Positions 2,321 through 23,957 of a stretch of 23,957 nucleotides of DNA are shown piece by piece. A program made the translations under genes and the position numbers. A model generated the notes under the pieces. That model made no database searches, was not told the origin of the DNA, and worked only from the letters and a program-made list of their open reading frames with translations. Origin of the DNA: an uncultured delta proteobacterium. Lineage in GTDB: Bacteria; Myxococcota_A; Polyangia; Polyangiales; Polyangiaceae. Position 1 is the first letter of the stretch. The number at the start of each line of letters is the position of its first letter. The stretch is from positions 1 to 23,957 of the forward strand of contig CAVQUB010000023.1 of assembly GCA_963716725.1 (NCBI GenBank), read 5' to 3'.

Positions 2321-3625
2321 TCACAGCCCGTAGACCTTCGAGCGGTCGCCCTCGACGCCGCGCAGCGCGTCCCGCGTGTCGACCACCAGCTTGGCCTCCG
2401 CCAGCAGCCGCGCGCGTTCCAGCTTCAGGTGGTCGGTGATGATCACCACGCAGTCGTAACCCGCAAAGCTCGACTTGGGGTCGACGCTGCTCATCTTCAT
2501 GCCGTCCTCGTCGAAGCTCGGCACGTGCGGATCCATGTACGACAGCTCCGCGCCGCGCTGCGCCAGATCGTGCATCACGCTGAAGGCGGGGCTCTCGCGC
2601 ATGTCGTCCACGTCGCGCTTGTAGGCCACGCCGTAGATCAGGATCTTCGAGCCGTTCAGCGGCTTCTTCTGGGAGTTCAGCGCCTCGCTCACGCGTTCGA
2701 CCACGTAGGCCGGCATCGAGCTGTTGATGGTGTCCGCCAGCTCGATGAAGCGCGCCTGGTACTTCAGGGTGCGCAGCTTCCACGACAGATAGAGCGGGTC
2801 GATGGGGATGCAGTGCCCGCCCAGGCCCGGCCCCGGATAGAAGGGCATGAAGCCGAAGGGCTTGGTCGCCGCCGCGCGGATCACCTCGCAGGGATCGAGC
2901 CCGAGCCGCCGGCACATCATCGCGACCTCGTTGACCAGGCCGATGTTCACCGCGCGGAAGGTGTTCTCGAGCAGCTTGACCATCTCGGCGGCCTGGGTGC
3001 TCGACACCGGGACCAAGCGTGTCGATGATGTTCGAGTACAGCGCCGTCGCCATCTTCATGCACTCGGGCGTGACGCCGCCGAGCACCTTCGGCGTGTTCT
3101 TGGTCTTGTAGGTCGCGTTGCCCGGGATCGACGCGCTCGGGCGAGAACGCCACGAACACGTCCTTGCCCAGCACCGCGCCGCCCTCGGTGAGCTCGGGCA
3201 CCACGACCTCGTCGGTGGTGCCGGGGTAGGTGGTGCTCTCGAGCACGACCAGCATGCCCGGGTGCTGGTGCTTGGCGATCTCGGTGGTCGCTTCGACGAT
3301 GAAGCGCATGTCCGGCTCCTTGGTCTTGTTCAAGCGGCGTCGGCACGCACACCACCACCGCGTCGGCCTCGGCCAAGATCGCCGGATCGGCCGTGGCCGC
3401 CAGCGTGCGCGCCTTCACGTGCGGGGCGAGGTCCGCCGTCGGCACGTCCCGGATGTACGACTCGCCGGCGTTGAGCAGCCGCACCTTCTCGCGGTCGTAG
3501 TCCAGGCCCGTCACGCGGAAGCCCGCGCGGGCCAGCTCGGCGACCAGGGGCAGGCCGACGTAGCCGATGCCGACGACGACGACGTGGGCGGTCTTCTGTT
3601 CGATTTTTTCGAATAGGGTGGGCAT
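2321..3625 (-). CDS. Nucleotide-sugar dehydrogenase (UDP-N-acetylglucosamine 6-dehydrogenase WbpA/WecC family), three apparent frameshifts
   Basis: GIGYVGLP Rossmann motif, CVPTP, ESTTYPGTT, FSPERVDPG, KLLENTFRAVNI, GPGLGGHCIP, YKRDVDDMRESP. Single extra bases near 3333, 3122 and 3016 split it over four ORFs. Confidence 0.9.
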
Positions 3626-4660: not shown

Positions 4661-4699
4661 CGCCCTCACGCGCGACCCGTCCAAAATCCGGGCAAAATC

Positions 4700-6468: not shown

Positions 6469-6474
6469 GGCCCC

Positions 6475-6509: not shown

Positions 6510-6516
6510 GGAGGCC

Positions 6517-6636: not shown

Positions 6637-6649
6637 GCTCTCGCTCTCG

Positions 6650-7834: not shown

Positions 7835-7976
7835 CGCCGCAACCGCTGGGAACGAGCTCGTGCCCCAGCCCCTCGCGTAGGAACGAGTTCTTTACCAAAG
7901 CCGACCGTTAGTCAAGGATGCGTTCCTAGGCTGCCTCCCCCCAGGCATGCTCGGGGGCGCCGGTCCGCCACTCCAT

Positions 7977-7996
7977 CACCTGTCCCAGGACAGGTG
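7977..7996. repeat. Hairpin cacctgtc-ccag-gacaggtg just after the ATPase stop
   Basis: Perfect 8-bp stem. tcacctgtcccaggacagg also occurs at 4194-4212 inside the DUF222-type gene. Confidence 0.5.
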
Positions 7997-7999
7997 TGT

Positions 8000-9442: not shown

Positions 9443-9540
9443 AACTCGCTTCTGCAGGGTACTTGCGGCGAGCAATCGGTCAAGCCTTCATCGCCACGAC
9501 TCCCTCCGCCAGGGCACTTGTGGCGACCTTTCCGACCAGC

Positions 9541-9617
9541 GCCCTCGCCCTCGCCCTCGCCCTCGCCCCCGCTCTCGCCCCCGCCCTCGCCCCCGCCCTC
9601 GCCCTCGCCCTCGCCCT
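9541..9617 (-). repeat. (GAGGGC)n tract, about 13 units, starting within the stop codon of the upstream gene
   Basis: Read directly from the sequence. Confidence 0.95.
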
Positions 9618-12207
9618 ACTCGAAGAACACCGGGTTGCTCACCGCGAAGGGCACCTTGCCGCTCAAGGGTTGCAGGTTCTTCTCGCCCTTGGCGTGGAAC
9701 ACCACCCAGTTGCGCGCCTTGCTCGCGTCGAGCTGCACCGTCACCAGGTTCACGAAGGTCTTGCCGGTGCCCGTGCCCAGCGGCGCCAGCGGCTCGGTCT
9801 TCTGCGTCACGCCGTTCACGATCACCTCGAGCTCGGTCGCGTCGACGAAGCTCGCCGCGTGCACGCTCACGGTGAAGTCCGCCGTCGCGGGCTTGCCCGG
9901 CACCGTCGATCCCGGTTTGGCGCCACCCGGTCCCTCCACGGTCATGAACAGGCCGCCGCTCACCGTCGCGGTGCCCTTGGCCAGCACGTCGCGCACGGCG
10001 CTGGCCGTCAGCTTGGTCGGGTCGTCGTGGCCGAAATAGAGGCAGGTGCGCGGAAAACCCACCGGCTTGGAGCGGATGTGATGCGAGTCGCTCGAGCCGA
10101 CGCCCCACATGGTGTGCCCGGCGTTGAGCAGCGCGAACCAGTCCTTCACCGACGCGCTGCGGTTGTCCTCGAAGGTCGAGCTGTTCCAGACCTCGACGGC
10201 GTCGAACTCGGCAGCCCAAAGCTCGTTCTGATTGCCTTTGGCGGTCTTCGGATCGAAGCCCGCATGGTCGAAGTAGCCCATCAGCCCCTCGCGCGGGTGG
10301 TTGACGATCAGCACCGGGTTCTCGGGCCGCGCCTGCACCTCGGCGAAGATCTGCGGAGGCTTCTTTCCGACCCAGTCGATGGCGCCGTTGTTCAGCTCGT
10401 CGGGCTTGGGAAAGATCGGCACCACTCCGAAGTGTCCCCAGGTGAAGGTGGTGAGCTCTTCGCTGGGCATGCCGAAGGCCCACTTCTCCATCCCGAGCTC
10501 CTTCACGATCGGCTGAAAGTCGATGATCCATTCGTGCTCACTCGAGACGGGGATCTCGAGGCCCTCGGTCAGCGCGTTCTTCACCTTGTCCATGACCGGA
10601 TCGCTCGAGTCCGCGGAGTGCCACGAGTGGATGTGGAAGTCGGCGCACATCCAGCCGGTGGAGTCGACGCTGTGCTCGAGATCCGCCACCACCTCCACGG
10701 TCTGTCCCGCGGCGACGTCGACGGTCGTGTCGATCAGCTCGTACTCCCAGCCCCGAGTCACCACCACGCGGTGCTCGCCGGGCGGCACGCGCAGGCTCGC
10801 CTCGCCGGTCAGCGCTCGGTCGACCCAGAGCCGGCCGTCGGCTTCTGGCTCGACGCCGTACGCGTCCGGCGCGGCGGCCACCGGACTCTGGGGGATCACG
10901 TGGACGCGCACCGGCAGCGCGACCCCGGTGGTCTTGTCCTTCGCGGTCACGTGCACGGTGCCGTGCGCCGCCAGCGAGAGGTCTTTGCTCGCCACGTCGC
11001 CCGCCACCGCGACCGGGGCGGCGAGCGCGTAGCCCTGGTGCTGCGCGACCAGCTTCGCGCTCTGTTCCGGATCGAGGTGCAGCGTGTATTTGCCGTCCTT
11101 GTCGCTGCGAGTCCGGTTCAGGTACGCGCCCGCGTCGTCGAGTGCGTGCACGTAGGCCTCGGCCACCGGTGCGCCCGCCGAGTCCTTCACCACCCCGCTC
11201 ACTTCGCGGCTCTCCAGCCCGTCCGCGCGCCGCACCGCCTCGCGCAGCCCGTCGTACTCGGGACCGCCGACGATGACCTCGACGTGATCGGTCCAGAAGG
11301 TCTTGCAGATCGGGATCTCGAATCCATCACCGGTCGCGATCACCGAGCCGCTCTCCTCGAACCCGGGCTCGATCTGCTCGCCGCCGGCGAGCCGCCACGC
11401 AAACGACGACTCGTCGTGCACGAAGCCGGCGTAGGACACCTTGCCCTTCGCCTTGGCGAAGCCCCACTCGGGCGACACGAACTGGTTGCGGCTGCCGTGG
11501 AAGAAGGCGTGCAGCTCATCGGTGTAGCCTGACCCGCCGATGGTCAGCGGTTCGTCCCAGGCGTTCTTGATGCCCAAGCGGATCGAGAGCTTGTTGCTGC
11601 CCGGCTCGAGCACGAAGTCATAGGCCGCCATCAGCCCCGAATAGCGTCGCGCCAGCAGGTTCCCGAGGGACCCATCCAAGAAGGGAATGGGCTTCAGCGG
11701 TCCGGTCGCGCGCACCACCGCCGCCTTCCCGTCCGACCCGTCGTTGATCACGCTCACGCTGTCGGGATCGATGATGTCGATGCCGACGCCCATCAAGGTC
11801 TCGCCGTAATACGCCTTGCCGAGCGGCCGCCCGTCGTCGCCCACGCGGTCGACCGCCAGCAGATCGCCGCCGAAGCGCTGATAGCCGTCCGAGACGCCCT
11901 TGTCCTCGATGTAGGCCGCGACCTTGTCGTTGGCCAAGACGAAGTCGCCGACGCGCACGCGCTGCCGCCCGTGGGCGGTCTGCACGACCATCGCTTCGCT
12001 GGTCACGCGCCCCGCGCGGGCCTGACTCGCGGCCTTGGCACCGAAGGGATCGGTGTGCCCCGTCGGATCACCGGTCGCGAACCCGACGCCTTCTTTCGGG
12101 CAGCTCTCGCCGCCACCGCCGCCGCCGCCGTCGTCGGAGCCGCACGAGAACACGGAGAACGCCACAGAGCCCAGGGCCGCCATGCCGGCGAGTCGTCGAA
12201 GCTTCAT
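9616..12207 (-). CDS. CehA/McbA-type (PHP-like) metallohydrolase lipoprotein with carboxypeptidase-regulatory-like domain (863 aa)
   Basis: Signal MKLRRLAGMAALGSVAFSVFS-C; VSGVVKDSAGAPVAEAYV; metal motifs DFHIHS, SEHE, EELT..WGH, NHP, SSDSH. Confidence 0.82.
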   Translation of the reverse strand: MKLRRLAGMAALGSVAFSVFSCGSDDGGGGGGGESCPKEGVGFATGDPTGHTDPFGAKAASQARAGRVTSEAMVVQTAHGRQRVRVGDFVLANDKVAAYIEDKGVSDGYQRFGGDLLAVDRVGDDGRPLGKAYYGETLMGVGIDIIDPDSVSVINDGSDGKAAVVRATGPLKPIPFLDGSLGNLLARRYSGLMAAYDFVLEPGSNKLSIRLGIKNAWDEPLTIGGSGYTDELHAFFHGSRNQFVSPEWGFAKAKGKVSYAGFVHDESSFAWRLAGGEQIEPGFEESGSVIATGDGFEIPICKTFWTDHVEVIVGGPEYDGLREAVRRADGLESREVSGVVKDSAGAPVAEAYVHALDDAGAYLNRTRSDKDGKYTLHLDPEQSAKLVAQHQGYALAAPVAVAGDVASKDLSLAAHGTVHVTAKDKTTGVALPVRVHVIPQSPVAAAPDAYGVEPEADGRLWVDRALTGEASLRVPPGEHRVVVTRGWEYELIDTTVDVAAGQTVEVVADLEHSVDSTGWMCADFHIHSWHSADSSDPVMDKVKNALTEGLEIPVSSEHEWIIDFQPIVKELGMEKWAFGMPSEELTTFTWGHFGVVPIFPKPDELNNGAIDWVGKKPPQIFAEVQARPENPVLIVNHPREGLMGYFDHAGFDPKTAKGNQNELWAAEFDAVEVWNSSTFEDNRSASVKDWFALLNAGHTMWGVGSSDSHHIRSKPVGFPRTCLYFGHDDPTKLTASAVRDVLAKGTATVSGGLFMTVEGPGGAKPGSTVPGKPATADFTVSVHAASFVDATELEVIVNGVTQKTEPLAPLGTGTGKTFVNLVTVQLDASKARNWVVFHAKGEKNLQPLSGKVPFAVSNPVFFE

Positions 12208-12268
12208 TGGGGGTGGGGGAGTGTAGCGCGGGAGCTGGGAGCGGGACACGCGCGCGCTTTTCGCTGGC

Positions 12269-12314
12269 GCGAGGGCGAGGGCGAGGGCGAGGGCGAGGGC
12301 GAGGGCGAGGGCGA
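12269..12314 (+). repeat. (GAGGGC)7 tract
   Basis: Read directly from the sequence. Confidence 0.95.
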
Positions 12315-12316
12315 TA

Positions 12317-12353
12317 TTGACGGACGTCGCGCTTGCCGTACAATTGCCGGCAA
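12317..12353 (+). promoter_or_regulatory. sigma70 promoter and probable operator of the DUF1778-GNAT pair
   Basis: TTGACG (12317-12322), 16-nt spacer, TACAAT (12339-12344); overlapping ttgccg repeats and ttgccggcaa palindrome. Confidence 0.65.
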
Positions 12354-12360
12354 CGACCCA

Positions 12361-12642
12361 ATGTCTGACACATCGACCAGAACTGAACGCATCGAGCTTC
12401 GAGCCGAGCCGGACCGTGCGAAACGGATCCGCTACGCCGCCAAGCTTCGGCGGCAGTCGGTCAGCGCGTTCATGCTCGACGCCGCAAGCGACCGTGCCGA
12501 GCGAGTGATCGCCGAATCCACTACGACCGCCGTGCCCGCGGCGTTCTTCGACAAGCTCTGGAAAGGGCTGAACGCGCCCGCGCGCCCGAACCGTGCGTTG
12601 TCGAGGCGCGCCGCCGCCCCCCGTCGCGTCGTACAACGTTGA
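12361..12642 (+). CDS. DUF1778 (TacA-like) RHH antitoxin
   Basis: RTERIELR...IRYAA....SVSAFMLDAA...AERVI...FFDKL...L.AP.RPN.AL. Confidence 0.88.
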   Translation: MSDTSTRTERIELRAEPDRAKRIRYAAKLRRQSVSAFMLDAASDRAERVIAESTTTAVPAAFFDKLWKGLNAPARPNRALSRRAAAPRRVVQR

Positions 12643-13172
12643 GCGGCGCTGGGGTGGGCACCTGGGTTTCGGAGTCGCTCGCGGACCATCACCGACTTGA
12701 CACCTTCGGGTGCGGGCAGGCGGACCTGGAGCGGTGGTTGAAGCAAAGCGCAGCTCATGCCCAGGCGATGCGTACGGCCCGGACGTTCGTTTGGCACGGT
12801 GGTGACCGCCACATCGTCGCGTACTTCAGTCTCGCAGCTCATCTCGTCCAGAAGTCGGTCTTGCCCAAGCGCCTGGCGCGGGGCGCTCCGGATGCCATCC
12901 CCGCTGTGATGCTGGCGCGGCTTGCCCTGCACCGCAGCCTGCACGGGCAGGGGCTCGGGGGGGAGCTGCTCTGGGACGCTTTGTCGCGCGCGGTCGCGGC
13001 CAGTGAAATTGCGGGCGCCCGGATGGTCGTCGTCGATGCGATCGACGCGGCTGTCGCCGGTTTTTATACCCACCACGGCTTCGCACCAGTTCCCGGGCAA
13101 CCGCTCCGCTTGGTGCAGAAGATTGGCGATGTCGCGGCTGCTCTCCAGCGGGGGTCGGGGCGCCGCGTGTGA
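12639..13172 (+). CDS. GNAT acetyltransferase toxin (TacT/AtaT-like)
   Basis: FGCGQADLERWL, IPAVMLARLA, HGQGLG, VVVDAID, FYTHHGF; TTGA overlap with the antitoxin. Confidence 0.9.
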   Translation: MSGAGVGTWVSESLADHHRLDTFGCGQADLERWLKQSAAHAQAMRTARTFVWHGGDRHIVAYFSLAAHLVQKSVLPKRLARGAPDAIPAVMLARLALHRSLHGQGLGGELLWDALSRAVAASEIAGARMVVVDAIDAAVAGFYTHHGFAPVPGQPLRLVQKIGDVAAALQRGSGRRV

Positions 13173-13178
13173 ATCGTC

Positions 13179-13202
13179 GCGGGGGCGAGGGCGAGGGCGA
13201 GG
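13179..13202 (+). repeat. (GAGGGC)n tract, about 4 units
   Basis: Read directly from the sequence. Confidence 0.85.
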
Positions 13203-13324
13203 CAGCGCAGCTTCGCGCGCGAGTAGTTCAGGTGGCGCGATGATCCCGAACCCCGCGCAATAAACAAGACCACAATATGAGTAATTGCTGTATGACGCAG
13301 ACTGCAGTATGAGTTAGGTGTAGA

Positions 13325-13344
13325 TATCATGCTGTTGCATGATA
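13325..13344. promoter_or_regulatory. Perfect inverted repeat tatcatgc-tgtt-gcatgata in an AT-rich upstream region; candidate operator
   Basis: 8-bp arms ending 26 nt upstream of an HTH gene; 13255-13370 is markedly AT-rich. Confidence 0.5.
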
Positions 13345-13370
13345 CTATTCACCAGAACTCATGGTGTGGC

Positions 13371-13832
13371 ATGAGAAAAGAACTTCGTGAAAGGGCGCGT
13401 CAGAGGCTCGACGAGCGGCTCCTGCCTCTGAAGCCAGTAGACCGTTTCGAGGCGCCGCCCAGGGGCTGGATCAGAGCGGTCCGCGATGCCTTGGGCATGA
13501 CGGGGATGCAACTCGCCCGGCGGCTGAGGATCAGCCCGCAAAGCGTCGACGCGCTGGAGAAGTCCGAGAAGAACGGCGCGATCAAGATCGAGACCCTGCG
13601 CCGTGCGGCGGCGGCCCTCGACTGCACGCTCGTCTATGCGCTCGTACCCAACGCATCGCTCGAAGGGGCGGTGCAGGACCGCGCCCGCAAGATGGCGATG
13701 CGTGACCTTGGCCGCGTCGCGCACACGATGAAGCTCGAAGCGCAGGGCACCGGCGACGCCGAGCTAGAGGCGCGAATCGCCGCCTACATCCGCGACCACC
13801 TCGACGACCGCGATCTTTGGGCTCAGGCGTGA
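13371..13832 (+). CDS. Mobile mystery protein A (XRE HTH)
   Basis: PPRGWIRAVRDALGMT..QLA.RL...E.SE..G.I...TLRRAA.ALDC.LVYALVP...TM.LEAQ. Confidence 0.9.
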   Translation: MRKELRERARQRLDERLLPLKPVDRFEAPPRGWIRAVRDALGMTGMQLARRLRISPQSVDALEKSEKNGAIKIETLRRAAAALDCTLVYALVPNASLEGAVQDRARKMAMRDLGRVAHTMKLEAQGTGDAELEARIAAYIRDHLDDRDLWAQA

Positions 13833-14425
13833 CGGACCTCTTTCACGAACCGGACGCTGCGACACCCCTGGAGCACGAAGAGCGCGAGGGGCTCCTGCAG
13901 ACGTGGGTTACACACCGGCGCGACCTCAACGAGGCCGAACAGGAGAACATCGTGAAGGGCGCGAGATGGGCCCGGCGGAGCCGCGGCCTCACGGCAGTTG
14001 GCCTGCTCGGCGATTCCTTTGCCCGCACGCTGCACGAGCGCATGTTCGGCGACGTCTGGAGGTGGGCAGGGACCTACCGGCAAACCGAGCGCAACATCGG
14101 TATCGAAGCTCACCGGATCATCGTCGAGCTGGCGACGATGTTCGACGACGTGCGCCACTGGGTCGAGCACGCGACCCACCCGCCGGACGAGATCGCCGTG
14201 CGGCTGCATCACCGGCTGGTCGCCATCCACCCGTTCCCGAACGGCAACGGACGCCACGCGCGCCTCATGGCTGATCTGCTGATCGAGAAGCTCGGCGGCG
14301 AACCCTTCAGTTGGGGCGGGGGCAGCCTCGCCGACGTGAGCGAGTTGCGAGCTCGGTACGTGGCGGCGCTCCAGGCCGCCGACGGCCACGAGCTCGGCCC
14401 GCTCTTGGCTTTTGCGCGTTCGTGA
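13829..14425 (+). CDS. Mobile mystery protein B (Fic family)
   Basis: ATPL..EE.EGL, LNEAEQENI, MFGDVW.WAG.YR, HPFPNGNGRHAR; GTGA overlap with protein A. Confidence 0.9.
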   Translation: MTDLFHEPDAATPLEHEEREGLLQTWVTHRRDLNEAEQENIVKGARWARRSRGLTAVGLLGDSFARTLHERMFGDVWRWAGTYRQTERNIGIEAHRIIVELATMFDDVRHWVEHATHPPDEIAVRLHHRLVAIHPFPNGNGRHARLMADLLIEKLGGEPFSWGGGSLADVSELRARYVAALQAADGHELGPLLAFARS

Positions 14426-14477
14426 GCTGGTGTCGAGAGTTGGCTCGGGGTGTGACCCAGCCGTACTCGCCGTGCAC

Positions 14478-14533
14478 GCGAGGGCGAGGGCGAGGGCGAG
14501 GGCGAGGGCGAGAGCGAGGGCGAGGGCGAGGGC
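14478..14533 (+). repeat. (GAGGGC)9 tract (one GAGAGC variant)
   Basis: Read directly from the sequence. Confidence 0.95.
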
Positions 14534-14586
14534 GCCAGCCAAGCGGACATCTGGCTGCCGCCCTGCTGCGTGTCACCGGATTCGAG

Positions 14587-15198
14587 TCACCCCCCGGAGA
14601 GCTGCACGAAGAAGTCATCGACCTGCGGCACGAGGCCCGGCAACGCCGGGTGCTCTGGCAACGCGGAGCCGCATTCGAACCGCGCGCTGCCGTCGGCGGT
14701 CGTGACGAGAACCTGGCGGGCGACCGGCAGCACCACCCACACCACCGGGACGCCCACAGACAAGCACCAGCTGGTCTTTTCCGCGAGGGCGCCCTCGGGC
14801 TCGTCGAGCGCCGCGACCTCCACGGCCAACACTGGTGGAACGCGGCGTAGCCCGCCGGTTCGCGAGCCCAGGTCCGAGCGTCGCCAAACTGCGGCGTCTG
14901 CGGCGCGGGTCGTTCCGGACAAGCGCATTCCTGCTTCGTTGGTGCCAAGGACGAACTCCCGATGGGCTCGGACCCAGGCCCCGACGGTGATCACCACGTC
15001 GGCCACCACGTCCTGCTGTTCGTCCCCGCACGGCGGCAGGTAGAGAAGTTTCCCTTCGACGTACTCGAGCCGCCCCTCCACACGTGGCCACGTCTCCGGG
15101 CGCTCTTCGTCGAATCCGTCGGGCGGGATGAGCTCGACGGGAAACCGAATCGCGCGAGGCAGGACGATCTGCTCGTCATATCGCGCGGCCATCGACAT
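14587..15198 (-). CDS. Uma2 family endonuclease
   Basis: RLEYVEGKL...PP, RAADAAV, PPVLAVEV, K...L..GVPVVWVV.P, LPGL. Confidence 0.85.
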   Translation of the reverse strand: MSMAARYDEQIVLPRAIRFPVELIPPDGFDEERPETWPRVEGRLEYVEGKLLYLPPCGDEQQDVVADVVITVGAWVRAHREFVLGTNEAGMRLSGTTRAADAAVWRRSDLGSRTGGLRRVPPVLAVEVAALDEPEGALAEKTSWCLSVGVPVVWVVLPVARQVLVTTADGSARFECGSALPEHPALPGLVPQVDDFFVQLSGG

Positions 15199-15246
15199 GA
15201 GCCAACTGTCCCATGCGGCAAGGACGGAAACAACGAGGCAGCGGCT

Positions 15247-15435
15247 CGCGGCGGCAAGCCCTGTATCCGCGGCCTACGGATGACGGTTTACGAGGTCCTC
15301 GACTATCTTGCCTCCGGCATGACGGAGGACGAGATCCTGAAGGACTTTCCAGATCTCGAGCGCGACGACATCCGCGCGTGCCTCGCCTTTGCGGCCGATC
15401 GTGAACGCCGCCTCATGGCGGTCCCTGCCGAGTGA
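15247..15435 (+). pseudogene. DUF433 antitoxin, 5'-truncated (in-frame ATG at 15280)
   Basis: RGGKPCIRGLR.TVY.VL.YLASGMTEDEILKDFPDL...DIRACLAFAA; the usual first dozen or so residues appear absent. Confidence 0.8.
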
Positions 15436-15507
15436 CAACGGAGCTTCCTGTGCGGGTACCCGCCGAAGGTCATCTGGATTCGGCTGGGCAACTGCAGGAC
15501 CGACGCG
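15432..15507 (+). pseudogene. DUF5615 PIN-like toxin remnant
   Basis: GTGA start overlap, then out of frame QRSFLCGYPPKVIWIRLGNCRTD, the conserved C-terminal part of DUF5615 toxins. Confidence 0.7.
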
Positions 15508-15548
15508 CAGCCGCGCATGCGCGCGATGGGGACACACGTCCGCGGGTT

Positions 15549-15570
15549 CAGGAACAGGAACAGGAACAGG
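15549..15570 (+). repeat. (CAGGAA)n hexamer tract
   Basis: caggaacaggaacaggaacagg. Confidence 0.8.
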
Positions 15571-15653
15571 ATTTCTCTTCTTCGCTTCCCCATTCTCGCG
15601 CCGCGCACTCGCTTCGCTCGTGCGCGCCCTTGACCCGCGCTGCGCGCGGCGCC

Positions 15654-15700
15654 GGGGGCGAGGGCGAGGGCGAGGGCGAGGGCGAGGGCGAGGGCGAGGG
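15654..15700 (+). repeat. (GAGGGC)n tract, about 8 units
   Basis: Read directly from the sequence. Confidence 0.95.
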
Positions 15701-15811
15701 TCGGTGAGCTGGCGCTGATCGTCTGCTATATTCTACAGGCCACGGAGGCACCCCCCGAAGCGCCTCCGGCCCTTTTTCGACCAGCTCGGGGAACGGGCCA
15801 AGGAGGCCTTC

Positions 15812-16051
15812 ATGACCGGAGCACAAATGTTGATCGAGCAGGGCCGAGCCGAGGGCCTGGAGAAGGGCAGAGCCGAGGGCAAGGCCGAGGGCAAGGCCGA
15901 GCTCCTGCTTCGCCTCATGCGGCGGAAGTACGGAAAGCTGCCTGCGGGGGTGAGCAAGCGCCTGCGCGGCGCGGCAGGCGACGACCTGGGCCGCTGGGCC
16001 GAGCGCGTGATGACGGCGGCGACCCTCGACGAAGTGTTCGAAGGTCGCTAG
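15812..16051 (+). CDS. Orphan Rpn C-terminal protein (RpnS/DUF4351-like), 79 aa
   Basis: Near-identical to 18267-18494; AAGGAGG 5 nt before the ATG; two gccgagggcaag units. Confidence 0.75.
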   Translation: MTGAQMLIEQGRAEGLEKGRAEGKAEGKAELLLRLMRRKYGKLPAGVSKRLRGAAGDDLGRWAERVMTAATLDEVFEGR

Positions 16052-16079
16052 CCGGTGTCTGCCGCTCCGCGGCCTGCGC

Positions 16080-16105
16080 GCGAGGGCGAGGGCGAGGGCG
16101 AGGGC
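16080..16105 (+). repeat. (GAGGGC)4 tract
   Basis: Read directly from the sequence. Confidence 0.9.
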
Positions 16106-16188
16106 TCGGTTCCGGCTGCTCTCGGCCTATGTTCGACCGCCGGTACGCGGCGCGTCTGGCCTCGAGGCGCCGGCGCGGGAAACCCGGG

Positions 16189-16839
16189 TCAAAGTCCGGG
16201 GCCCTGATAGCCGCACTGCCCGGTCCGCGGGGAGTTGACCATGGGCAGGAACATTTCCTTGCTGCACGCGTGCTTCTGCGCGCATCCGCCGCAGAGCGAG
16301 ATCCCCCCGCACGCCACGCAGATCTGTGTGGCCGCGGACGAGCACTTCTCGCATTGGATCAGCGGCGGGTCGTTGAAGGCCACGAGCCTCACGCTCTCCG
16401 CACCGCGCTTGCCCTGCCGCTCGGCGACGACCCTCAGCGCGAGCGTCGTTTTCGTGCCGAAGTCGTAGTCGTAATGGAACTTCAGGCCGGGGGCCAGGAC
16501 GCGGGCGAGGCTCGTCCGCATGTCCTTGTCGACGAGGTCTTGGTCGTCGTAGCCCCCGGAGCTGTAGGTGAAGTCGCCGATCCTGAAAGCGCTCAGATGA
16601 CCGCAGCACTCCAGCCAGGCGCCACGGACGAACTCGTCCAACTTGGCGAGCGACGCCTCGGCGCTCACCTCCAAGTGCATCCAGTAGGCCGTCGCGTGGC
16701 GACCCTCGACCACGATGTGAAACAGCCTGTGCTTCCCGGCCGCGCGGCGCGGGCACGCGGCAAGATGTCTGCTCATGGCAGCTTTGGTGAACTTTGCGTC
16801 GCAGAGCAGGCACTTCCCGTTCGATTGAGTAGCAGCCAT
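16189..16839 (-). CDS. pRiA4b ORF-3-like Cys-rich protein
   Basis: WLECCGHLSAF, FHYDYDFG, several CxxC pairs, NSPRTGQCGY; GGGGAGA upstream of the ATG. Confidence 0.7.
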   Translation of the reverse strand: MAATQSNGKCLLCDAKFTKAAMSRHLAACPRRAAGKHRLFHIVVEGRHATAYWMHLEVSAEASLAKLDEFVRGAWLECCGHLSAFRIGDFTYSSGGYDDQDLVDKDMRTSLARVLAPGLKFHYDYDFGTKTTLALRVVAERQGKRGAESVRLVAFNDPPLIQCEKCSSAATQICVACGGISLCGGCAQKHACSKEMFLPMVNSPRTGQCGYQGPGL

Positions 16840-16850
16840 GTGGTCTCCCC

Positions 16851-16952
16851 TGCGCCGGTCAAAGCCGGCAAGGTGAAATGGTGAAAGTCCAAACAACGAA
16901 AGGATTAGCCAGCCACGTTGACCCCGAGTCATGCGTCGCTGCCCGCGAGGGC
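16851..16952 (+). mobile_element. Probable 5' remnant of a group II intron (domain I)
   Basis: TGCGCC start then gtgaaagtcc...gaaaggattagccagccacgttgaccccgagtcatgcg...ccgcgagggc, resembling bacterial group II intron 5' regions as recalled. No RT or domain V in the window. Confidence 0.5.
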
Positions 16953-16964
16953 GAGGGCGAGGGC
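16945..16964 (+). repeat. (GAGGGC)3 tract
   Basis: Read directly from the sequence. Confidence 0.85.
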
Positions 16965-17062
16965 GCTGATCGTCTGCTATATTCTACAGGCCACGGAGGC
17001 ACCCCCCGAAGCGCCTCCGGCCCTTTTTCGACCAGCTCGGGGAACGGGCCAAGGAGGCCTTC

Positions 17063-17326
17063 ATGACCGGAGCACAAATGTTGATCGAGCAGGGCCGAGC
17101 CGAGGGCCTGGAGAAGGGCAGAGCCGAGGGCAAGGCCGAGGGCAAGGCCGAGGGCAAGGCCGAGGGCAAGGCCGAGCTCCTGCTTCGCCTCATGCGGCGG
17201 AAGTACGGAAAGCTGCCTGCGGGGGTGAGCAAGCGCCTGCGCGGCGCAGCAGGCGACGACCTGGGCCGCTGGGCCGAGCGCGTGATGACGGCGGCGACCC
17301 TCGACGAAGTGTTCGAAGGTCGCTAG
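17063..17326 (+). CDS. Orphan Rpn C-terminal protein (RpnS/DUF4351-like), 87 aa
   Basis: As 15812-16051 but with four gccgagggcaag (AEGK) units; same AAGGAGG SD. Confidence 0.75.
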   Translation: MTGAQMLIEQGRAEGLEKGRAEGKAEGKAEGKAEGKAELLLRLMRRKYGKLPAGVSKRLRGAAGDDLGRWAERVMTAATLDEVFEGR

Positions 17327-17354
17327 CCGGTGTCTGCCGCTCCGCGGCCTGCGC

Positions 17355-17378
17355 GCGAGAGCGAGGGCGAGAGCGAGG
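17355..17378 (+). repeat. (GAGAGC/GAGGGC)n tract, about 4 units
   Basis: Read directly from the sequence. Confidence 0.85.
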
Positions 17379-17490
17379 ACACCTGGCTGTCGCGTGGGTT
17401 TGGGGGTCGGGGTGGCGATCGCCGGTGGCGGAACCGGGCCTCGCCACCCCGGGGGCCGACCGACTCCAGCAGGAAGACCACCATTCCCAC

Positions 17491-17507
17491 TCGGCACGCG
17501 GATTGCG
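17491..17507 (+). promoter_or_regulatory. sigma54-like -24/-12 element
   Basis: TCGGCACGCGGATTGCG fits GG-N10-GC. It is very close to the ATG, so it would require the GTG at 17520 as start. Confidence 0.3.
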
Positions 17508-18494
17508 ATGCCCCCGCCAGTGCAACCGCACGACCGTCTCTTCCGCGCCGTCTTCTCCGAGCCGGAGCACGCGGTGGGTCTGCTGCGCGCGGCGCTGCCG
17601 CCGGCCCTGGCGCAGCAGATCGACTGGGCCACGCTCAGTCCGCTGCGCGCTGGCCTCGTCGACTCGGCGCTCCAAGCGCGCTACGCGGACGTGCTGTTCA
17701 GCGTTCAGCTCGCCGGTCGCCCGGCGATCTTGCACCTCCTGGTCGAGCACCAGAGCACCCCGGACCGGCTGATGCCCCTGCGCCTGCTGGGCTACATGCT
17801 GCGGATCTGGGAGAGGCTCCTCCGGTCCAAGTCGGCCGAGCTGCCGCTGCCGGCGATCATTGCCATCGTCTGCCACCACGGCGAGAAGGGCTGGACCGTT
17901 GCGCGCGCGCTTCGTGAGCTGCTTGCTCTACCACGCGGCGAATTCCCGGAGCTCGAGCCCCACGTGCCGAGCTTCGAGCCCATCATCGTGGACTTGTCGA
18001 AGGCCGCTGACGACGCGCTACGCGCGGAGCTGCTCAGCGCGCTGGGGCTCGCGGCGCTGGTGTGTCTGACGCGAGTGCGCGGGTCCAAAGACGTGCTCGG
18101 GGTCCTGTGGCGCTTCCGGGACGCCTTCGCGGCGGTGCTCCAGGCGCCGACGGGGGTCGGTGCGCTGGCGCTGATCGTCAGCTATATTCTACAGGCCACG
18201 GAGGCACCCCCCGAGCGCCTCCGGCCCTTTTTCGACCAGCTCGGGGAACGGGCCAAGGAGGCCTTCATGACCGGAGCACAAATGTTGATCGAGCAGGGCC
18301 GAGCCGAGGGCCTGGAGAAGGGCAGAGCCGAGGGCAAGGCCGAGCTCCTGCTTCGCCTCATGCGGCGGAAGTACGGAAAGCTGCCTGCGGGGGTGAGCAA
18401 GCGCCTGCGCGGCGCGGCAGGCGACGACCTGGGCCGCTGGGCCGAGCGCGTGATGACGGCGGCGACCCTCGACGAAGTGTTCGAAGGTCGCTAG
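17508..18494 (+). CDS. Rpn family (YhgA-like, PD-(D/E)XK) protein with internal RpnS start at 18267
   Basis: PHDRLFRAVF, ADVLF, LLVEHQS.PD.LM.LRLL.Y; internal SD plus MTGAQMLIEQG; EG-rich and DUF4351-like tail. Confidence 0.9.
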   Translation: MPPPVQPHDRLFRAVFSEPEHAVGLLRAALPPALAQQIDWATLSPLRAGLVDSALQARYADVLFSVQLAGRPAILHLLVEHQSTPDRLMPLRLLGYMLRIWERLLRSKSAELPLPAIIAIVCHHGEKGWTVARALRELLALPRGEFPELEPHVPSFEPIIVDLSKAADDALRAELLSALGLAALVCLTRVRGSKDVLGVLWRFRDAFAAVLQAPTGVGALALIVSYILQATEAPPERLRPFFDQLGERAKEAFMTGAQMLIEQGRAEGLEKGRAEGKAELLLRLMRRKYGKLPAGVSKRLRGAAGDDLGRWAERVMTAATLDEVFEGR

Positions 18495-18598
18495 CCGGTG
18501 TCTGCCGCTCCGCGGCCTGCGCGCGAGCCTGGACCCCGGCTGCGCGCGGCGGGTGCTCCTCCGGAGTCGGACTTTCTCCGACGAAGGAGAGTGAGAAC

Positions 18599-18946
18599 AT
18601 GTTGCAGATCTACCCCGTCATCCTCGAGGCGCTGCGTGAGCTCCAAGGGGTCGTTGCCGTGCTCGCGCGGCGGGACCCGGACCTGACACGACAGCTGCGG
18701 CGCTGCTCGAGCAGCGTCGCGCTCAACGTCGCAGAAGGCATGTACTCGCGCGGGAAGAACCGCGCGGCGAGCTACCACACCGCGCTCGGCTCGGCCCGCG
18801 AGGTGCTCGCATGCCCCTCGCCAGGGACTTCCAAGGGTCGCCTCGAGGTCGCAGGCGCCCTCGGGTACGTTGCGGAGCTCGATCCCGCGCTCGTCGCGAA
18901 GCTCAATCGCATCATCGGAACGCTCGTGCGCTTGGTCGGCGCGTGA
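18599..18946 (+). CDS. Four-helix-bundle protein (23S rRNA IVS protein / Avd-like)
   Basis: D.DL.RQLRR...SVALNVAEG...Y..ALGSARE; AAGGAG SD; carries an apparent 9-aa insert. Confidence 0.85.
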   Translation: MLQIYPVILEALRELQGVVAVLARRDPDLTRQLRRCSSSVALNVAEGMYSRGKNRAASYHTALGSAREVLACPSPGTSKGRLEVAGALGYVAELDPALVAKLNRIIGTLVRLVGA

Positions 18947-19022
18947 GGGCGAGGGAGAGGGCGTAGGGAGGACCCGAGACCTCAGCTCGGCCCGCCCTGG
19001 CATTTGCCGCTCGCGCCGGCGC
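18945..19022. repeat. Hexamer tract plus 62-bp diverged copy of the 3' end of the FG-GAP gene
   Basis: 18961-19022 versus 19418-19479, 56/62 identical; both are preceded by hexamer tracts (18945-18962; 19398-19419). Confidence 0.85.
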
Positions 19023-19078
19023 AGTCCGCGCCGATGATGACAAGGGACGAGCACTGCGGCGTGCGCTATAGTCCTGGC

Positions 19079-19294
19079 ATGCGGAACGAGTTCACCGCCA
19101 TCATCGAGCGCGATGGCGACCTGTACATTGCGTACTGCCCCGAAGTGCCGGGGGCGAATGGCCAGGGCCAGTCCAAGGCCGAAGTGCTGGAGAACTTGTC
19201 TGCGGCCATCTCGCTCATTCTTGAAGACCGGCGTGACGACGCGCTGCGGGGGCTCCCCGTCGACGCCCAGAAGGAAACCGTGGTCGTCGGGTGA
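19079..19294 (+). CDS. hicB: HicB family antitoxin
   Basis: FTAIIERDGD.YIAYCPEVPGANGQG.S..E..ENL..AI; TATAGT -10 lies 6 nt before the ATG (leaderless). Confidence 0.85.
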   Translation: MRNEFTAIIERDGDLYIAYCPEVPGANGQGQSKAEVLENLSAAISLILEDRRDDALRGLPVDAQKETVVVG

Positions 19295-19350
19295 AGCGGA
19301 CCGCGTTCTTGCGCCATCTCCGCCGCCACGGTTGCCATCTGAAAGGCTGA
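19291..19350 (+). pseudogene. hicA: HicA toxin N-terminal remnant (MKRTAFLRHLRRHGCHLKG*)
   Basis: GTGA overlap with hicB; typical HicA start that stops before the G.xH catalytic motif. Confidence 0.75.
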
Positions 19351-19438: not shown

Positions 19439-21810
19439 TCAGCTCGGGCCGCCCTGGCACTTGCCGTTTGCGCCGGCGCTCTTGTTGTTGTCGGTGCGGC
19501 ACTCGACCCACGAGTGGGCCGGTGATCCGTCATCGACCACGGCGAAGAGCGGAGTCGCGCCGCTCTTGACGTTCGCGGGCGCGTTCGGGAGATCGAGCAC
19601 CACGTCCTCGGCTTCTGCCGGGTAGAGCGCCTTCGATGTGAACGCGGTCCCGAGCAAGGTCCCGCCGCTCGCGGGGTCGCCGGCGTAGAAGCCGACGGTC
19701 ACCTTGGCGGGCACGCTGGCCTGCCCGATGTTGCGCACCCGCGCCACCACGGCGTAGGTCCCCACGCAGCGGGGGAACACGCTCACGATCAGAATCTGGC
19801 GCCGAGAACTCCCCCAGCGGCTGCACGTTCTGGCGGAAGTTGTTGAGCCGCGGCTGGGTCCAGTTGGGCAGCTCGTTCTTCGGGATGGTGCCGTCCTCGT
19901 CCACGTTGGTCACGTGATACGCATGCTGGTTCCACACGCGCCGCGTGCGCACCCACTTGCCCTGGTCGTCGCCGAACACGCGCAGCCCGCGCTGCTTCGA
20001 GTTGTCCTTCGGGCACACGATGCTCGAATACGAGTTCGACACGACCACGATGTCCGCGTTGCCGTCGTTGTCCACGTCGGCGACCAGCGGATACTCGACC
20101 AGCGTGCCCGTGGTGTTGCAGGTCGACCACAGCACGCTGCCGTCGGTGCCCTTGTAGATGCGGAAGTACTGCTCGTCGGAGTAGACGACCTCCGGCGTGC
20201 CGTCGCCCTCGAAGTCGAACAGGCTCGATCCCGTCGCCGCGCTCGAGCAGTCCTGGGTCTTCGTGAGCCAGAGCAAGGTCTGGTTGGCAGGCACGGCCGC
20301 GTTCAGCACCTTCGAGCCGTCGATGACGGCGTAGCCGATGCCGCCCGCCACTGCGACGTCGGGAACCTGGTCGCCGTTGAAGTCGGCGATGGTGGGCGGG
20401 CCGCCGCCGGTGGTGTTGCCCGAGCTGCCGACCGGGACAGGTGTTCGGCAAAGGTGCCGTTGATGTCGATGCCGGTGCGCAGCACCTTGACCTTGTTGGT
20501 CGCGGTCGCGTCGTAGCGCCACACGCTCAGCTGGTGGTTCGGCTTGTTGATGCTCGCGACCTCCGGCGTGCCGTCCTTGTCGAAGTCGCCCACGGCCACG
20601 TAGGTGCCCGCCAGCCCCGAGTCGGCCAGCAGCGTCCCGTCGATGCCCTTGTGGATGCGGGTCGGCGTGACGATGTCGAGCTTGCCGTCGCCGTCCATGT
20701 CCGAGAGCACGAAGTTGCCCGGGCCCGCCGGCGTCAGCGGGTACTTCAGCGCTCCCGTCGCGCCGTTCAAGACGCCGCCGTCCACCACGACCTCGGGCAG
20801 CCCGTCGCCGTCGAGATCGCCGAGGCTCGGCATGACGCAGGCGGCAGTGGGGCTGGTCCAGAGCTCGCTGCCGTCGGCCTTGTACGCGCGCACCTTGCTG
20901 GTCGTCGCGCACACGACGATCTCGTTGCCCGCCACGCCGTCGATGTTGCCGCCCGCGATGGACCGGCCCGGATGGATCGGATCGACGCTCGGGATTCTTC
21001 GACCACTTCTCGACCAGCTTGCCGTCGACGAGCGACACGACGCGGAGCGTGCCGTTCTCGTTGTATTTCCCGGCCTCGAAGGTCGAAAACACGATCTCCG
21101 GGATGTCCCGCTCGTCGACCTTGGAGTCGCAGTTGTCGTCGTCGAGCTGCACGACGATGGGCGACATCATGATGTCGCCTTTGTCCCAGTGCGCCTTCAG
21201 CTTCGGATCGAAGGCGGCGGGCGTGGGCTTGTACTCGCACTTGGCGAGACAGGTGAGCGGCTCGCCCGGCTTCGGCTCGGCGCCGGGTGCGCACTCCGGC
21301 GGCTTCGGCAAGCACTTGCCCGTCGCGAGCGACGCGCCGCCCTGACAGCTCGGGCCGCCGTCGGCGCCGGCGTCGCTTCCGCCGTCGGGACCTGTCGCCG
21401 GCTCCCCGAGTGAGTACTCGCAGTACTCGCCGGCTCGCGCAATCTCCCGCATCGACGCACATCTTCCCAGGCGTGACGCATTTCTCGAAGGAGCACACGT
21501 CGCCCGTCCCGCAGCACACGCTTCGCGCAGGCCTGCGTCGCGGCGCAGCATGCGCCGTCGATGCACACGCCGCCGTCGCAGCCGCCCGAGCACCCGCCGC
21601 CATCGGTGACGATGCCGCCGCCGGTGCCGCCGCCCCCCGTCGCGCTCGCTCGCCGGCCGCGCCGCCGCTGCCCGCGGAGGCGTCTGCGCCGCCACTGCCT
21701 CCCGTGTTGCTCGCTTTGCCGCCGCCTTCGTCGTCGGAGCCGCAGGCGGCGAAGAGGACCAGGGCGGAGAGGCAGAGGGTAGAAGGAAGATGCCAAGGCC
21801 GGAGGCGCAT
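19439..21810 (-). CDS. FG-GAP/VCBS-repeat lipoprotein with Cys-rich N-region and CARDB-like C-terminus; at least seven apparent frameshifts
   Basis: Lipobox LFAA-C; repeats GDLDGDGLPEV, DMDGDGKLDI, GDFDKDGTPEV, ADFNGD, FDFEGDG.PEV, ADVDNDGNADI; WNQHAYHVTNV; VRNIG...V.VGFY.G...VECRTDNN. Spread over five ORFs. Confidence 0.85.
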
Positions 21811-22048
21811 GGGCGGAGTTTAGCGTGGATCTGCGGCCGACGGGGTGGGCGCGCCGCCGCCTGGGCGTGCTTCCGGCTACCCGGCACGCCCCCACGTCAT
21901 GCCGTTCCACCGCGACCAGCGCGCCGCGGCCTGACGGCGATCGCCCCCGCAGAAGATATCCCGCAGCTACCCCGGAGGCTCTTGCGTCGCGAGCACCGAT
22001 CCGTGGATCGAGGGCGGCGGCCACCCCGAGCAAAACCGTCGACGGAAC

Positions 22049-22213
22049 TTAGGACGCGGGTCCGCCGTCGATCTGGTCGTCGCCGTCACCCCCACCGTGA
22101 GTCAGGTCGCGCAGCGTCCCGAGCTTCACGAGTCGTGGAGTTTCATAAGTTCTCTCGGGCGCCTCCGGAAGCTCCGGAGCGACGGGTTCCATGGGCTTAT
22201 GCCCGCTCGACAT
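22049..22213 (-). CDS. Lasso peptide precursor (54 aa; not in the ORF track)
   Basis: MSSGHKPMEPVAPELPEAPERTYETPRLVKLGTLRDLTH-GGGDGDDQIDGGPAS*: YxxPxLxxxG leader, Thr at -2, Gly1 core, Asp at core position 7. GGGAG SD; overlaps the cyclase stop. Confidence 0.85.
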   Translation of the reverse strand: MSSGHKPMEPVAPELPEAPERTYETPRLVKLGTLRDLTHGGGDGDDQIDGGPAS

Positions 22214-23906
22214 GGCTAGACTCCCTTTGCTCGATACGACAGGTGCGCACGGCCCGAATGATATTCAAGAGTGCCCGGAGGCGCAACGCATCCTGGGCAT
22301 CCAGCGAAATTGGCGGGTGCTCCAGCCAGTCTTCCCGAACTATTCCAGCGAGTTCCTCGGGCAATCGGTCGGTCCAGGGGAGCCGGACCGGCGGGTCCTG
22401 CCAACGAAGTTTTTGAACATCGAAGAGGTGGTCTGGCGCAATTCCGCGCACGGCAGCCCTGACCAGTCGCTTCGGGTGTCTCCCCGTCAGCTCCGTCGGG
22501 TCGCAGCGGTAGGCCAGCTCCAGAACATCGCGGTTGAAAAAGGGGAAGTACCGACGGACTCCGAGCGCGCTACAGACCTCCCAGTTCTGAACTGTCGCAG
22601 CCGCGCTGTGGCGGACACGATGCGAGAGATACGGCCGCTCGCTGCGATCACTTGAAAACGCAGCCTGTTCCTGGCGCGCGTTCTCCAGATACGCTGCCCC
22701 GAGCGCTGGAGCTAGGAAGCTCGGCGGGGCGAGGCTGCTCTTCAGTCCGCTCCTGTGCAGGATGCGGCGCGCCCGTACTCGAGCCCAGTAGCCGATCGCG
22801 GCCGTTCGCGAAAACGCAGCTGGAAACCGCCGAGCGGCGGCCGCGAAGGACGCGGAGGAGGCCCAGTCCGCCAGAGCGGGCCCACCGCCCAGGTGCTCAT
22901 CGCAGCCTTCTCCACCGAACATGCAAAGCAACTTGGTCTCCGCAGCTATGGTGGGAAGCACGCACAGTGCAGGGTGCACGACGGGCCAAACGACCCGCGG
23001 CGCGTCGCGCAGATACTCCAAGCGCGCCTCGGGACTCAGCTCGCGCTCCCACCTGCGCCGGACCCGCGAACCGAGATCGCCGAAGATGCTGTCAACCTGC
23101 GATTTCATTTCGAGGAGCTCGGGTCCGCCGCGAGGGGCGAGGGTCAGCGTGGAAAATTCCCGGCCGAGCGCGTCACCCGCCGCCCAAGCCAGGACGGAGG
23201 AGTCGAAGCCGCCGCTCAAAGTCAGGAGATTCTGACCTGTCTTGTCCAGGGAGCGGCCCAACCCGTCCAGGAGCATCGATCGGAGCTCGGCGGCGTGTTC
23301 CGCGAAGCTTGCTCCAGCGGGCAGTTCCCTCTGCGGGGGATGCCACCATTTTCGGCTCGAAACCCGCGGCCCGAGGTCCACCGAAGCGAGGCTCCGGTAC
23401 TCGAGCAGGGAGACGGCTTCCGAGGGGCGTCCGTTCGCTGGCGGCAGTGAAGGCGAACCGGATGCAGAATTGCGATTGCGAGGGGGTCGAGGCGGGGTTC
23501 CTCCGGCAGGTAGCGCGTGAGGTCGGTGAGACGATCGCAACCCCGAGGGCAGTCCTTCCGCGCCACACGAGTAGCGGGGCCGTCCCCGCGGCGGATTGCA
23601 CGAAGCATGCCTCGGTCTGACTTGGGGAAGCACGCATAAGGTGAAGTCGCCCGGCAGCGCTCGCAGTGAGTTGTCCCGCACGCCGTTGCGCGAGCTCCTC
23701 GCACTCCACGCCGGCGAGCCGCTCACCACCTTCAACAAATGAACGGTTGTCCCGTCGATCCAAGGGGGAGAGTTCCGAATGCGCAACGACCCAGCCGGAG
23801 TTGTGCCTGGGCGTCCCACCCAGTCGAACTGCCGCGAGGTGAGCAGGTCCAATTCCAAGGCTTGTAGGCCGCGGGGGTCCTCCGAACAAAACGCGATGAA
23901 CTTCAT
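22197..23906 (-). CDS. Asparagine-synthase-like lasso peptide cyclase
   Basis: PP-loop LSGGFDSS, GGEGCDE, YFPFFNRDVLELA, PKRLVRAA; no N-terminal Cys of a glutaminase domain; adjacent precursor. Confidence 0.8.
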   Translation of the reverse strand: MKFIAFCSEDPRGLQALELDLLTSRQFDWVGRPGTTPAGSLRIRNSPPWIDGTTVHLLKVVSGSPAWSARSSRNGVRDNSLRALPGDFTLCVLPQVRPRHASCNPPRGRPRYSCGAEGLPSGLRSSHRPHALPAGGTPPRPPRNRNSASGSPSLPPANGRPSEAVSLLEYRSLASVDLGPRVSSRKWWHPPQRELPAGASFAEHAAELRSMLLDGLGRSLDKTGQNLLTLSGGFDSSVLAWAAGDALGREFSTLTLAPRGGPELLEMKSQVDSIFGDLGSRVRRRWERELSPEARLEYLRDAPRVVWPVVHPALCVLPTIAAETKLLCMFGGEGCDEHLGGGPALADWASSASFAAAARRFPAAFSRTAAIGYWARVRARRILHRSGLKSSLAPPSFLAPALGAAYLENARQEQAAFSSDRSERPYLSHRVRHSAAATVQNWEVCSALGVRRYFPFFNRDVLELAYRCDPTELTGRHPKRLVRAAVRGIAPDHLFDVQKLRWQDPPVRLPWTDRLPEELAGIVREDWLEHPPISLDAQDALRLRALLNIIRAVRTCRIEQRESSHVERA

Positions 23907-23957
23907 TGTGGCTCGAGCAACTCGCGCAGCATCACCGCGGAGCGCGTATCGAGGTCG
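23903..23957 (-). CDS. 3' end of an upstream gene translationally coupled to the cyclase (partial; ...DLDTRSAVMLRELLEPQ*)
   Basis: Its TGA overlaps the cyclase ATG (ATGA); runs off the window. Confidence 0.55.
   Translation of the reverse strand, partial: DLDTRSAVMLRELLEPQ

Follow-up and report, generated by a model that had tools for sequence, protein, structure and literature searches.

Several described systems provide points of comparison for the locus analyzed here. The psmCAKB1B2ND cluster of Bacillus pseudomycoides is like the loci of its relatives in having split B1 and B2 genes, an HPr-like kinase gene, and a nucleotidyltransferase-family gene, and its peptide, pseudomycoidin, is like the one predicted here in ending with Ser and lacking an adequate plug (PMC6993621). 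The authors of that study propose that phosphate and hexose together act as the lock (PMC6993621). In the paeninodin type, according to the accessible part of the source, PadeK, ThcoK, and SyanK are His-Lys-Asp-Asp kinases, as in the loci described below, and act on the C-terminal Ser of the precursor (PMC9266682); the His, the Walker-A Lys, and the Asp-Asp pair are reported as catalytic in such kinases in the available portions of two studies (PMC9266682, PMC10368454). The second of these concerns the bsf cluster of Bradymonas sediminis FA350, in which, as far as the accessible text goes, the kinase acts on Ser3, the mature lasso peptide was never detected, and a bordering FG-GAP protein was presumed by the authors to be uninvolved (PMC10368454). 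Seven-residue rings are termed sterically hard to close in the part of a review that was available (PMC12427821), and a study of Bacilli, in its accessible part, gives the biological role of lasso peptides with phosphate as unknown (PMC13381572).

Here we describe a locus from a myxobacterium. The window, that is, the whole stretch of DNA that was analyzed (23,957 nt), quite probably holds the last two genes, C and A, of a lasso peptide operon of the paeninodin/pseudomycoidin type with the order RRE-B2-kinase-C-A. By analogy with these systems, the likely product would be a Gly1-Asp7 macrolactam carrying a phosphorylated, and perhaps glycosylated, Ser15.

Results

A precursor gene with a canonical lasso leader

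The window is the entire contig C23 of assembly G000, which comprises 7.89 Mb in 35 contigs, is 84% complete, and contains 45 MYXO-CTERM matches; together with the Myxococcales label on a protein from the same genus, these matches identify the host as a myxobacterium. A UDP-glucose/GDP-mannose dehydrogenase gene (2324..3625, minus strand), assigned by Pfam, serves as a synteny marker of a polysaccharide region; it is frameshifted and, in four pieces, 74-89% identical to a gene of the same-genus genome G001, where the counterpart sits ~0.9 kb after the precursor gene. Between the dehydrogenase and the precursor region, positions 3770-19300 (~15 kb) are taken up by small accessory genes, namely, those for Fic, an archaeal-type ATPase, mobile mystery protein B, Uma2, Rpn, and pRiA4b ORF3. 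The locus of another relative, G002, is likewise trailed by similar accessory genes, and the stretch in the window looks like an insertion hot spot. An FG-GAP lipoprotein gene, frameshifted into pieces, occupies 19442-21810 on the minus strand; it runs in the same direction as the precursor gene, begins ~240 bp after it, and is reached by a contig of a 92%-identical relative (X3).

The 54-residue ORF described in an earlier note on this DNA is present, with leader and core as quoted there, at 22049..22213 on the minus strand. Its overlap with the end of the asparagine synthase-like cyclase gene, also reported in that note, amounts to 17 nt, and the same 17-nt overlap occurs in G001 and in a second same-genus genome, G005. 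Orthologous precursors are 56-61% identical, and homologous cyclases likewise have a conserved counterpart of the small ORF next to them. The sequence AGGGAG (22221..22226, minus strand), within the 3' end of the cyclase gene and 7 nt before the precursor ATG, resembles a ribosome-binding site and may function as one. No promoter or terminator match was found at 21750-22400.

The leader motif (YxxPxL with Thr-2; 22097..22147, minus strand) runs from Tyr-17 to His-1 and is a putative RRE-binding element. The spacing of Tyr-17, Pro-14, Leu-12, and Thr-2 is canonical, and Gly1 of the core is residue 40 of the precursor. The lasso_leader_L3 model (NF033521) matches the leader at 28.5 bits against a cut-off of 19, and with a leader HMM trained on 18 further precursors the ORF reaches 32.2 bits, compared with 9.3 bits for the runner-up among 118,401 six-frame segments of the genome. 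These scores bear out the reading of the ORF as a lasso precursor. The locus had also been called unannotated, a weak description: the peptide is already called as a gene in a protein collection, and the G005 orthologue (P0043) carries the name [quoted passage not shown] When codons were read by hand against the 92%-identical relative, the leader showed one silent and zero replacement changes among the matches listed. The combination of Ile/Val at -2 and Ser/Thr3 that marks the Bradymonas bsf subtype is absent from the precursor, which has Thr-2 and Gly3. A contig from an RNA library spans 22042-22243 at 94%, a weak hint of expression, as DNA may occur in RNA libraries; the small shares examined of sequencing runs X1 and X2 yielded short pieces only.

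The core and its predicted Gly1-Asp7 ring

The 15-residue core (22052..22096, minus strand), delimited from the sequence and the precursor alignment, is predicted to form a Gly1-Asp7 macrolactam with a tail ending in Ser15. Asp7 is the sole Asp or Glu at positions 7-9, and Ser15 is the only hydroxyl residue. The orthologous precursors align without gaps in the core, and Gly1-3, Asp7, Gly11-Gly12-Pro13, and Ser15 are invariant in all four aligned (4/4). All of these are retained in G001 and G005; Ser15 is also retained in P0041 and in the X3 relative, and Asp7 is the single acid within positions 1-9 of the P0041 core. The Gly1-Asp7 ring assigned in the earlier note is supported by this invariance and by the position of Asp7 as the only acceptor.

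The other features that had been singled out fared less well. The core of the X3 relative, read by hand, has Gly in place of Asp4 and Asp10, Val in place of Ile9, and Glu in place of Ala14, and Asp4 and Asp10 differ in G001 and G005 as well; the four-Asp pattern is therefore not conserved. The core resembles GGxGxDxUx, the nonapeptide motif of RTX-type calcium repeats, a reading that we rejected because Asp4 and Asp10 vary in this way. A homopolymer error shifting the frame of the core was rejected because none of the matches listed for the X3 and X9 contigs has an indel at this place and because the orthologous cores align without gaps.

For a wider comparison, 25 other cores were hand-picked beside cyclases, omitting two Cys-rich cores of L031 and the cores of G028, G154, and G179. 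Every one of the 25 has an Asp/Glu acceptor at positions 7-9 and a Ser among its final four residues (the very last in 11/25), and 14/25 have no aromatic residue. As 23/25 are net negative, acidity is a trait of the whole related group and ordinary for the clade. The earlier claim of unusual chemistry was thus overstated, acidic, aromatic-poor cores that end in or near Ser being typical of related loci. Asp7 is the sole acceptor in only the G001 and G005 cores among the 25, and the 7-residue Asp ring is a trait of the genus-level subclade.

Some related precursors depart from this pattern. Two of them (P0044 and P0045) combine Asp7 with Cys3 and a terminal Cys and possibly represent a disulfide class, and L031 carries two Cys-rich precursors in tandem. 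The predicted cores at L016, L019, and L078 (G018, G020, and G373) begin with Phe or Val, an unusual first residue for lasso peptides.

The same enzymes could also give a stable product that is a branched-cyclic peptide, or one whose threading lasts only as long as the terminal Ser carries phosphate or sugar. We put this just short of an even chance, and it qualifies our best explanation, a paeninodin/pseudomycoidin-type lasso operon, rather than opposing it. In its favor, there is no large or aromatic residue past Asp10, and the relatives have Ile, Val, or Ala at position 9, with Asp, Gly, Ser, or Ala following at position 10; the invariant Gly-Gly-Pro, however, would fit a thin thread with a stop behind it. 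Pseudomycoidin lacking its modifications was obtained in branched-cyclic form, and replacing Leu with Phe preserved the threading (PMC6993621), yet smaller rings are linked to higher stability (PMC7549694), and huascopeptin, in the part of the source available, shows that a Gly1-Asp7 ring is possible. Overall, we consider the odds of threading in the unmodified product to be about even.

Upstream genes in related loci and their absence from the assembly

The contig ends inside the gene upstream of the cyclase gene, of which the last 17 codons are visible (23903..23957, minus strand). The stop of this gene overlaps the cyclase start as ATGA, and the kinase gene makes the same junction in G001 and G005. 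By position only, the visible tail is probably that of an HPr-like kinase; a BLASTP comparison of these residues with the G005 kinase was not significant.

The gene order RRE-B2-HPr-like kinase-cyclase-precursor was observed in G001, G005, and G002, with an NTP_transf_5 gene nearby. In the two same-genus genomes, the block lies among polysaccharide genes and includes PqqD, Transglut_core3, HPr-kinase-like, and NTP_transf_5 genes, and the B2 protein passes NF033537. Polysaccharide genes also flank the loci of G002, G174, G208, G209, and G274. Of the 15 other family genomes with the cyclase clade, all 15 had a kinase and B2 in the DNA fetched, 14 had an RRE, 6 had a nucleotidyltransferase, and 2 had an ABC ATPase, as detected by models partly trained on those loci, with many of the matches confirmed by Pfam; in G018 and G020 the upstream block is on a different contig from the cyclase. 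The kinases of relatives retain the His, the Walker-A Lys, and the Asp-Asp pair. Neither the window nor the 34, 35, and 56 kb fetched around the loci of G001, G005, and G002, respectively, yielded an ABC ATPase.

In G020, the cyclase and precursor share one contig and RRE-B2-kinase-lipoprotein another (L019 and L130), both parts lying well inside their contigs, which indicates a split cluster. At L116 (8805-9803; G179), the RRE model and the kinase model hit one and the same ORF, apparently a fusion of the two. Several clusters (L018, L078, L079, L080, L125, and L130) adjoin rpsB/tsf-like genes, much as the bsf cluster of Bradymonas has a ribosomal-protein border in the available part of its description (PMC10368454).

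In the 84%-complete G000 assembly, we found no PqqD (RRE), Transglut_core3 (B2), kinase, or orthologous nucleotidyltransferase gene, nor the glycosyltransferase and lipoprotein genes of the G001 block. A weak nucleotidyltransferase-like match on C34 was rejected as a cluster member on account of its unrelated neighbors. The genes lacking in G000 form one contiguous block in G001, non-lasso genes included. Given that neighboring non-lasso genes are lacking as well and that the contig breaks off within the upstream gene, the absence of RRE, B2, and kinase points to an assembly gap. No overlap was found between the end of C23 and any other G000 contig. The earlier note had placed these genes past the right edge of the window; that edge is the end of the contig itself, and the placement is supported through the orthologous loci, not through the G000 assembly. 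Formally, then, one sign against its reading that the earlier note had named, the lack of RRE and peptidase genes, does apply to G000, where a gap is the likely reason; both genes are present in the orthologous loci.

The 569-residue cyclase translation supplied with the earlier note is off-frame in part. Comparison with five homologues revealed 7-9 frame-changing indels at ~23349-23806, and the frame remains open because they sum to a multiple of three. The 92%-identical X3 contig shows single-base differences at matching places (among the 8 gaps listed of 14), and the cyclase 5' indels are probably assembly errors. It is improbable that the locus is instead decaying in the G000 strain, with real frameshifts in the cyclase and a lost upstream block. 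Such decay would be consistent with the indels in the 5' part, but these are concentrated at the contig end, the 3' part is intact and has no stop, and frameshifts also affect two unrelated genes of the contig, those for the dehydrogenase and the FG-GAP protein. It would also be consistent with the failure to find RRE, B2, and kinase genes, yet what is absent corresponds to a single G001 block that extends to non-lasso genes. A further point in its favor is the ~18 kb of Fic, Rpn, Uma2, and like genes between the precursor and the dehydrogenase.

The cyclase belongs to a lasso-linked clade

The cyclase gene (C; 22197..23906, minus strand) encodes an asparagine synthetase-like protein that matches PF00733, retains the SGGFDS and GGEGCDE motifs, and has no N-terminal Cys. 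In a tree of 26 rows, which the window cyclase entered by its intact C-terminal part, it is sister to the G001/G005 proteins (support, 100/100) and belongs to a lasso-linked clade of 14 rows (100/100) that excludes five AsnB-like proteins, one of them the AsnB of its own genome. A grouping with ordinary asparagine synthases, raised in the earlier note as a sign against its reading, is thus not what the tree shows. It is extremely improbable that the large gene encodes an ordinary asparagine synthetase or a polysaccharide amidotransferase and that the small ORF arose by chance: although the best NCBIfam match is AsnB, named lasso cyclase models score far below their cut-offs, and true AsnB-like genes occur in nearby polysaccharide loci, the asparagine synthetase model TIGR01536 gives only 39 bits against a cut-off of 267, the genome has a separate AsnB on C8, and the conserved precursor and the tree set the cyclase apart.

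A sequence search of the PDB returned only AsnB, beta-lactam synthetase, CarA, and a hydroxyamidotransferase. The cyclase clade is present in 15/382 other family genomes and was found in 0/210 genomes sampled from other families of the order; a relative also occurs in an Acidimicrobiaceae MAG. Among the matches listed, the true relatives numbered 1/5 genome_contigs loci and ~6/31 metagenome loci.

A giant integrin-like lipoprotein near related clusters

In G001, G002, and G005, a gene for a lipoprotein-like protein of ~1,300 residues is divergently transcribed from the RRE gene. The fold predicted for its C-terminal 458 residues (pLDDT, 90) best matches integrin alpha propellers (TM, ~0.6), and the ESM Atlas returned generic FG-GAP clusters, all under 0.9. 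This family was detected in 32/382 family genomes and in 12/15 of those with the present cyclase clade, nine of these twelve having been used to train the lipoprotein model. It was not found in the G000 assembly, in which we predict that the gene lies beyond the contig end. The FG-GAP lipoprotein gene at 19442-21810 of the window gave no match to the giant-lipoprotein models.

The lipoprotein also occurs in 20 family genomes without this cyclase clade. Of the neighborhoods fetched from these, 17 contain an RRE, 18 a kinase, 13 an Asn-synthase-like gene, and 4 a radical SAM gene; each of the three that lack an RRE is a contig of ≤16 kb. Outside the family, an RRE is present in 12/14 lipoprotein loci (13 of 18 outside genomes with a match), a kinase in 8 to 10 of the 14 by model, a radical SAM gene in 9, and a cyclase in 0, the radical SAM model having been trained on seven of these loci. 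Such co-occurrences are counts, not a statistical test, and kin genomes are not independent. The pairing of the giant lipoprotein with lasso cyclases is a contribution of this analysis. The kinase-to-lipoprotein link is not tight: related kinases are found in 219/382 family genomes (a tally that includes the unpublished G307), compared with 32/382 for the lipoprotein. A physical link between lipoprotein and peptide is something we only infer. A complex prediction that combined the propeller with the leader plus core, the peptide having neither ring nor phosphate, gave a score of 0.01 (mark, 0.32), which counts neither for nor against such a link.

Loci that lack a lasso cyclase were also noted beside this lipoprotein. 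At L115 (5709-13031), L120, L121, and L122 (G071, G278, G269, and G290), the arrangement is kinase-RRE-radical SAM-giant lipoprotein-small Cys-containing ORF, and some of these loci have a nucleotidyltransferase, an ABC transporter, or a short peptidase-like ORF. The same kinase-RRE-radical SAM-lipoprotein module occurs at L160, L161, and L164-L168 in other families of the phylum. In G423, G052, G057, G434, and G601, ORFs of 50-69 residues directly after the lipoprotein have a YxxP motif, two Cys residues, and a terminal Ser/Thr.

Discussion

The precursor, the cyclase, their conservation, and the full gene set of the relatives were observed, and the following biosynthetic steps are proposed by analogy with characterized systems. 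The RRE would bind the YxxPxL leader, and the HPr-like kinase, guided by the RRE, would phosphorylate Ser15 while it is still on the precursor. B2 would then cleave after His-1, and the cyclase would adenylate Asp7 and close the Gly1-Asp7 macrolactam around the tail. The nucleotidyltransferase-family enzyme may put a hexose onto the phosphate. Because there is no large residue past Asp10, either the tightness of the small ring or the phosphate or sugar at its end would hold the tail in place. The expected neutral monoisotopic masses are 1298.50 for the cyclized peptide, 1378.47 with phosphate, 1540.52 with one hexose, and 1702.57 with two hexoses. Gene context makes a role of the product at the cell surface more likely than one as a secreted antibiotic.

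A broader reading, which we offer as a tentative and rather unlikely one, is that Myxococcota have a cell-surface system encoded in polysaccharide loci. Its parts would be an RRE, an HPr-like kinase, in many cases a nucleotidyltransferase, a small ring-and-tail peptide with Ser/Thr at or close to its end, and a giant lipoprotein that has an Ig-like stalk and an integrin-alpha-like propeller head. The chemistry of the ring would be exchangeable, being supplied by either of two lasso cyclase clades or by radical SAM enzymes with Cys-containing precursors, and the kinase, RRE, and lipoprotein would persist while the ring enzyme varies. The phospho(glyco)peptide might serve as a ligand or tag of the lipoprotein, or as a linker between lipoprotein and glycan, in adhesion or kin recognition, and in this genus it would be a Gly1-Asp7 ring locked by its modification. 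If true, such a system would supply a biological role for kinase-type lasso peptides, which have lacked one. The giant lipoprotein, because it recurs, is a candidate partner; an FG-GAP neighbor of a similar cluster was noticed and set aside in one published study, as far as its available text goes (PMC10368454). Among the papers listed in the literature searched, from which subscription journals are largely missing, "lasso peptide" and "FG-GAP" occurred together in the Bradymonas paper only (PMC10368454), and no characterized lasso peptide from this group was found.

Judged by sequence, the window locus would count as part of a class II lasso cluster, with RRE, B2, and kinase found in the relatives only. 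Unlike it, the paeninodin type has a Bacillota host. The paeninodin core is also longer than the one here, and its ring is larger. Pseudomycoidin has a 9-residue ring, compared with 7 residues here, and its tail is much longer; its cluster also includes an ABC exporter, and none was found near the loci of G001, G002, and G005 (PMC6993621). The bsf system differs from the window locus in its Ile-2 leader, Gly1-Asp8 ring, Ser3 phosphate, and exporter, according to the accessible part of the report (PMC10368454). Huascopeptin, as described in the portion of the source available, is a short class II lasso peptide and the first with a Gly1-Asp7 macrocycle, the ring type predicted here; unlike the window peptide, it comes from Streptomyces and has 13 residues. 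The Bacilli capsular polysaccharide loci with paeninodin-like/LPP clusters are like the loci of the relatives in having an RRE, an HprK-like kinase, and an NTP transferase, and the available part of their description mentions no myxobacteria and describes no giant lipoprotein (PMC13381572).

The ring and the plug-less core, to which the earlier note had drawn attention, both have published precedent. As far as the accessible portions of the sources go, the Gly1-Asp7 ring is already known from huascopeptin, a plug-less phosphorylated core from pseudomycoidin, and the embedding in a polysaccharide locus from Bacilli. The window copy is incomplete and error-prone, and G001, G002, and G005 are better templates. 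The core has 15 residues, an Asp-closed ring of 7, and just one Ser, and it lacks a bulky plug, which makes it a minimal test case for the proposed locking of the thread by phosphate or sugar. What is notable here, in comparison with the known systems, is the very small ring and the fact that the related clusters usually stand beside a giant integrin-like surface lipoprotein in polysaccharide regions.
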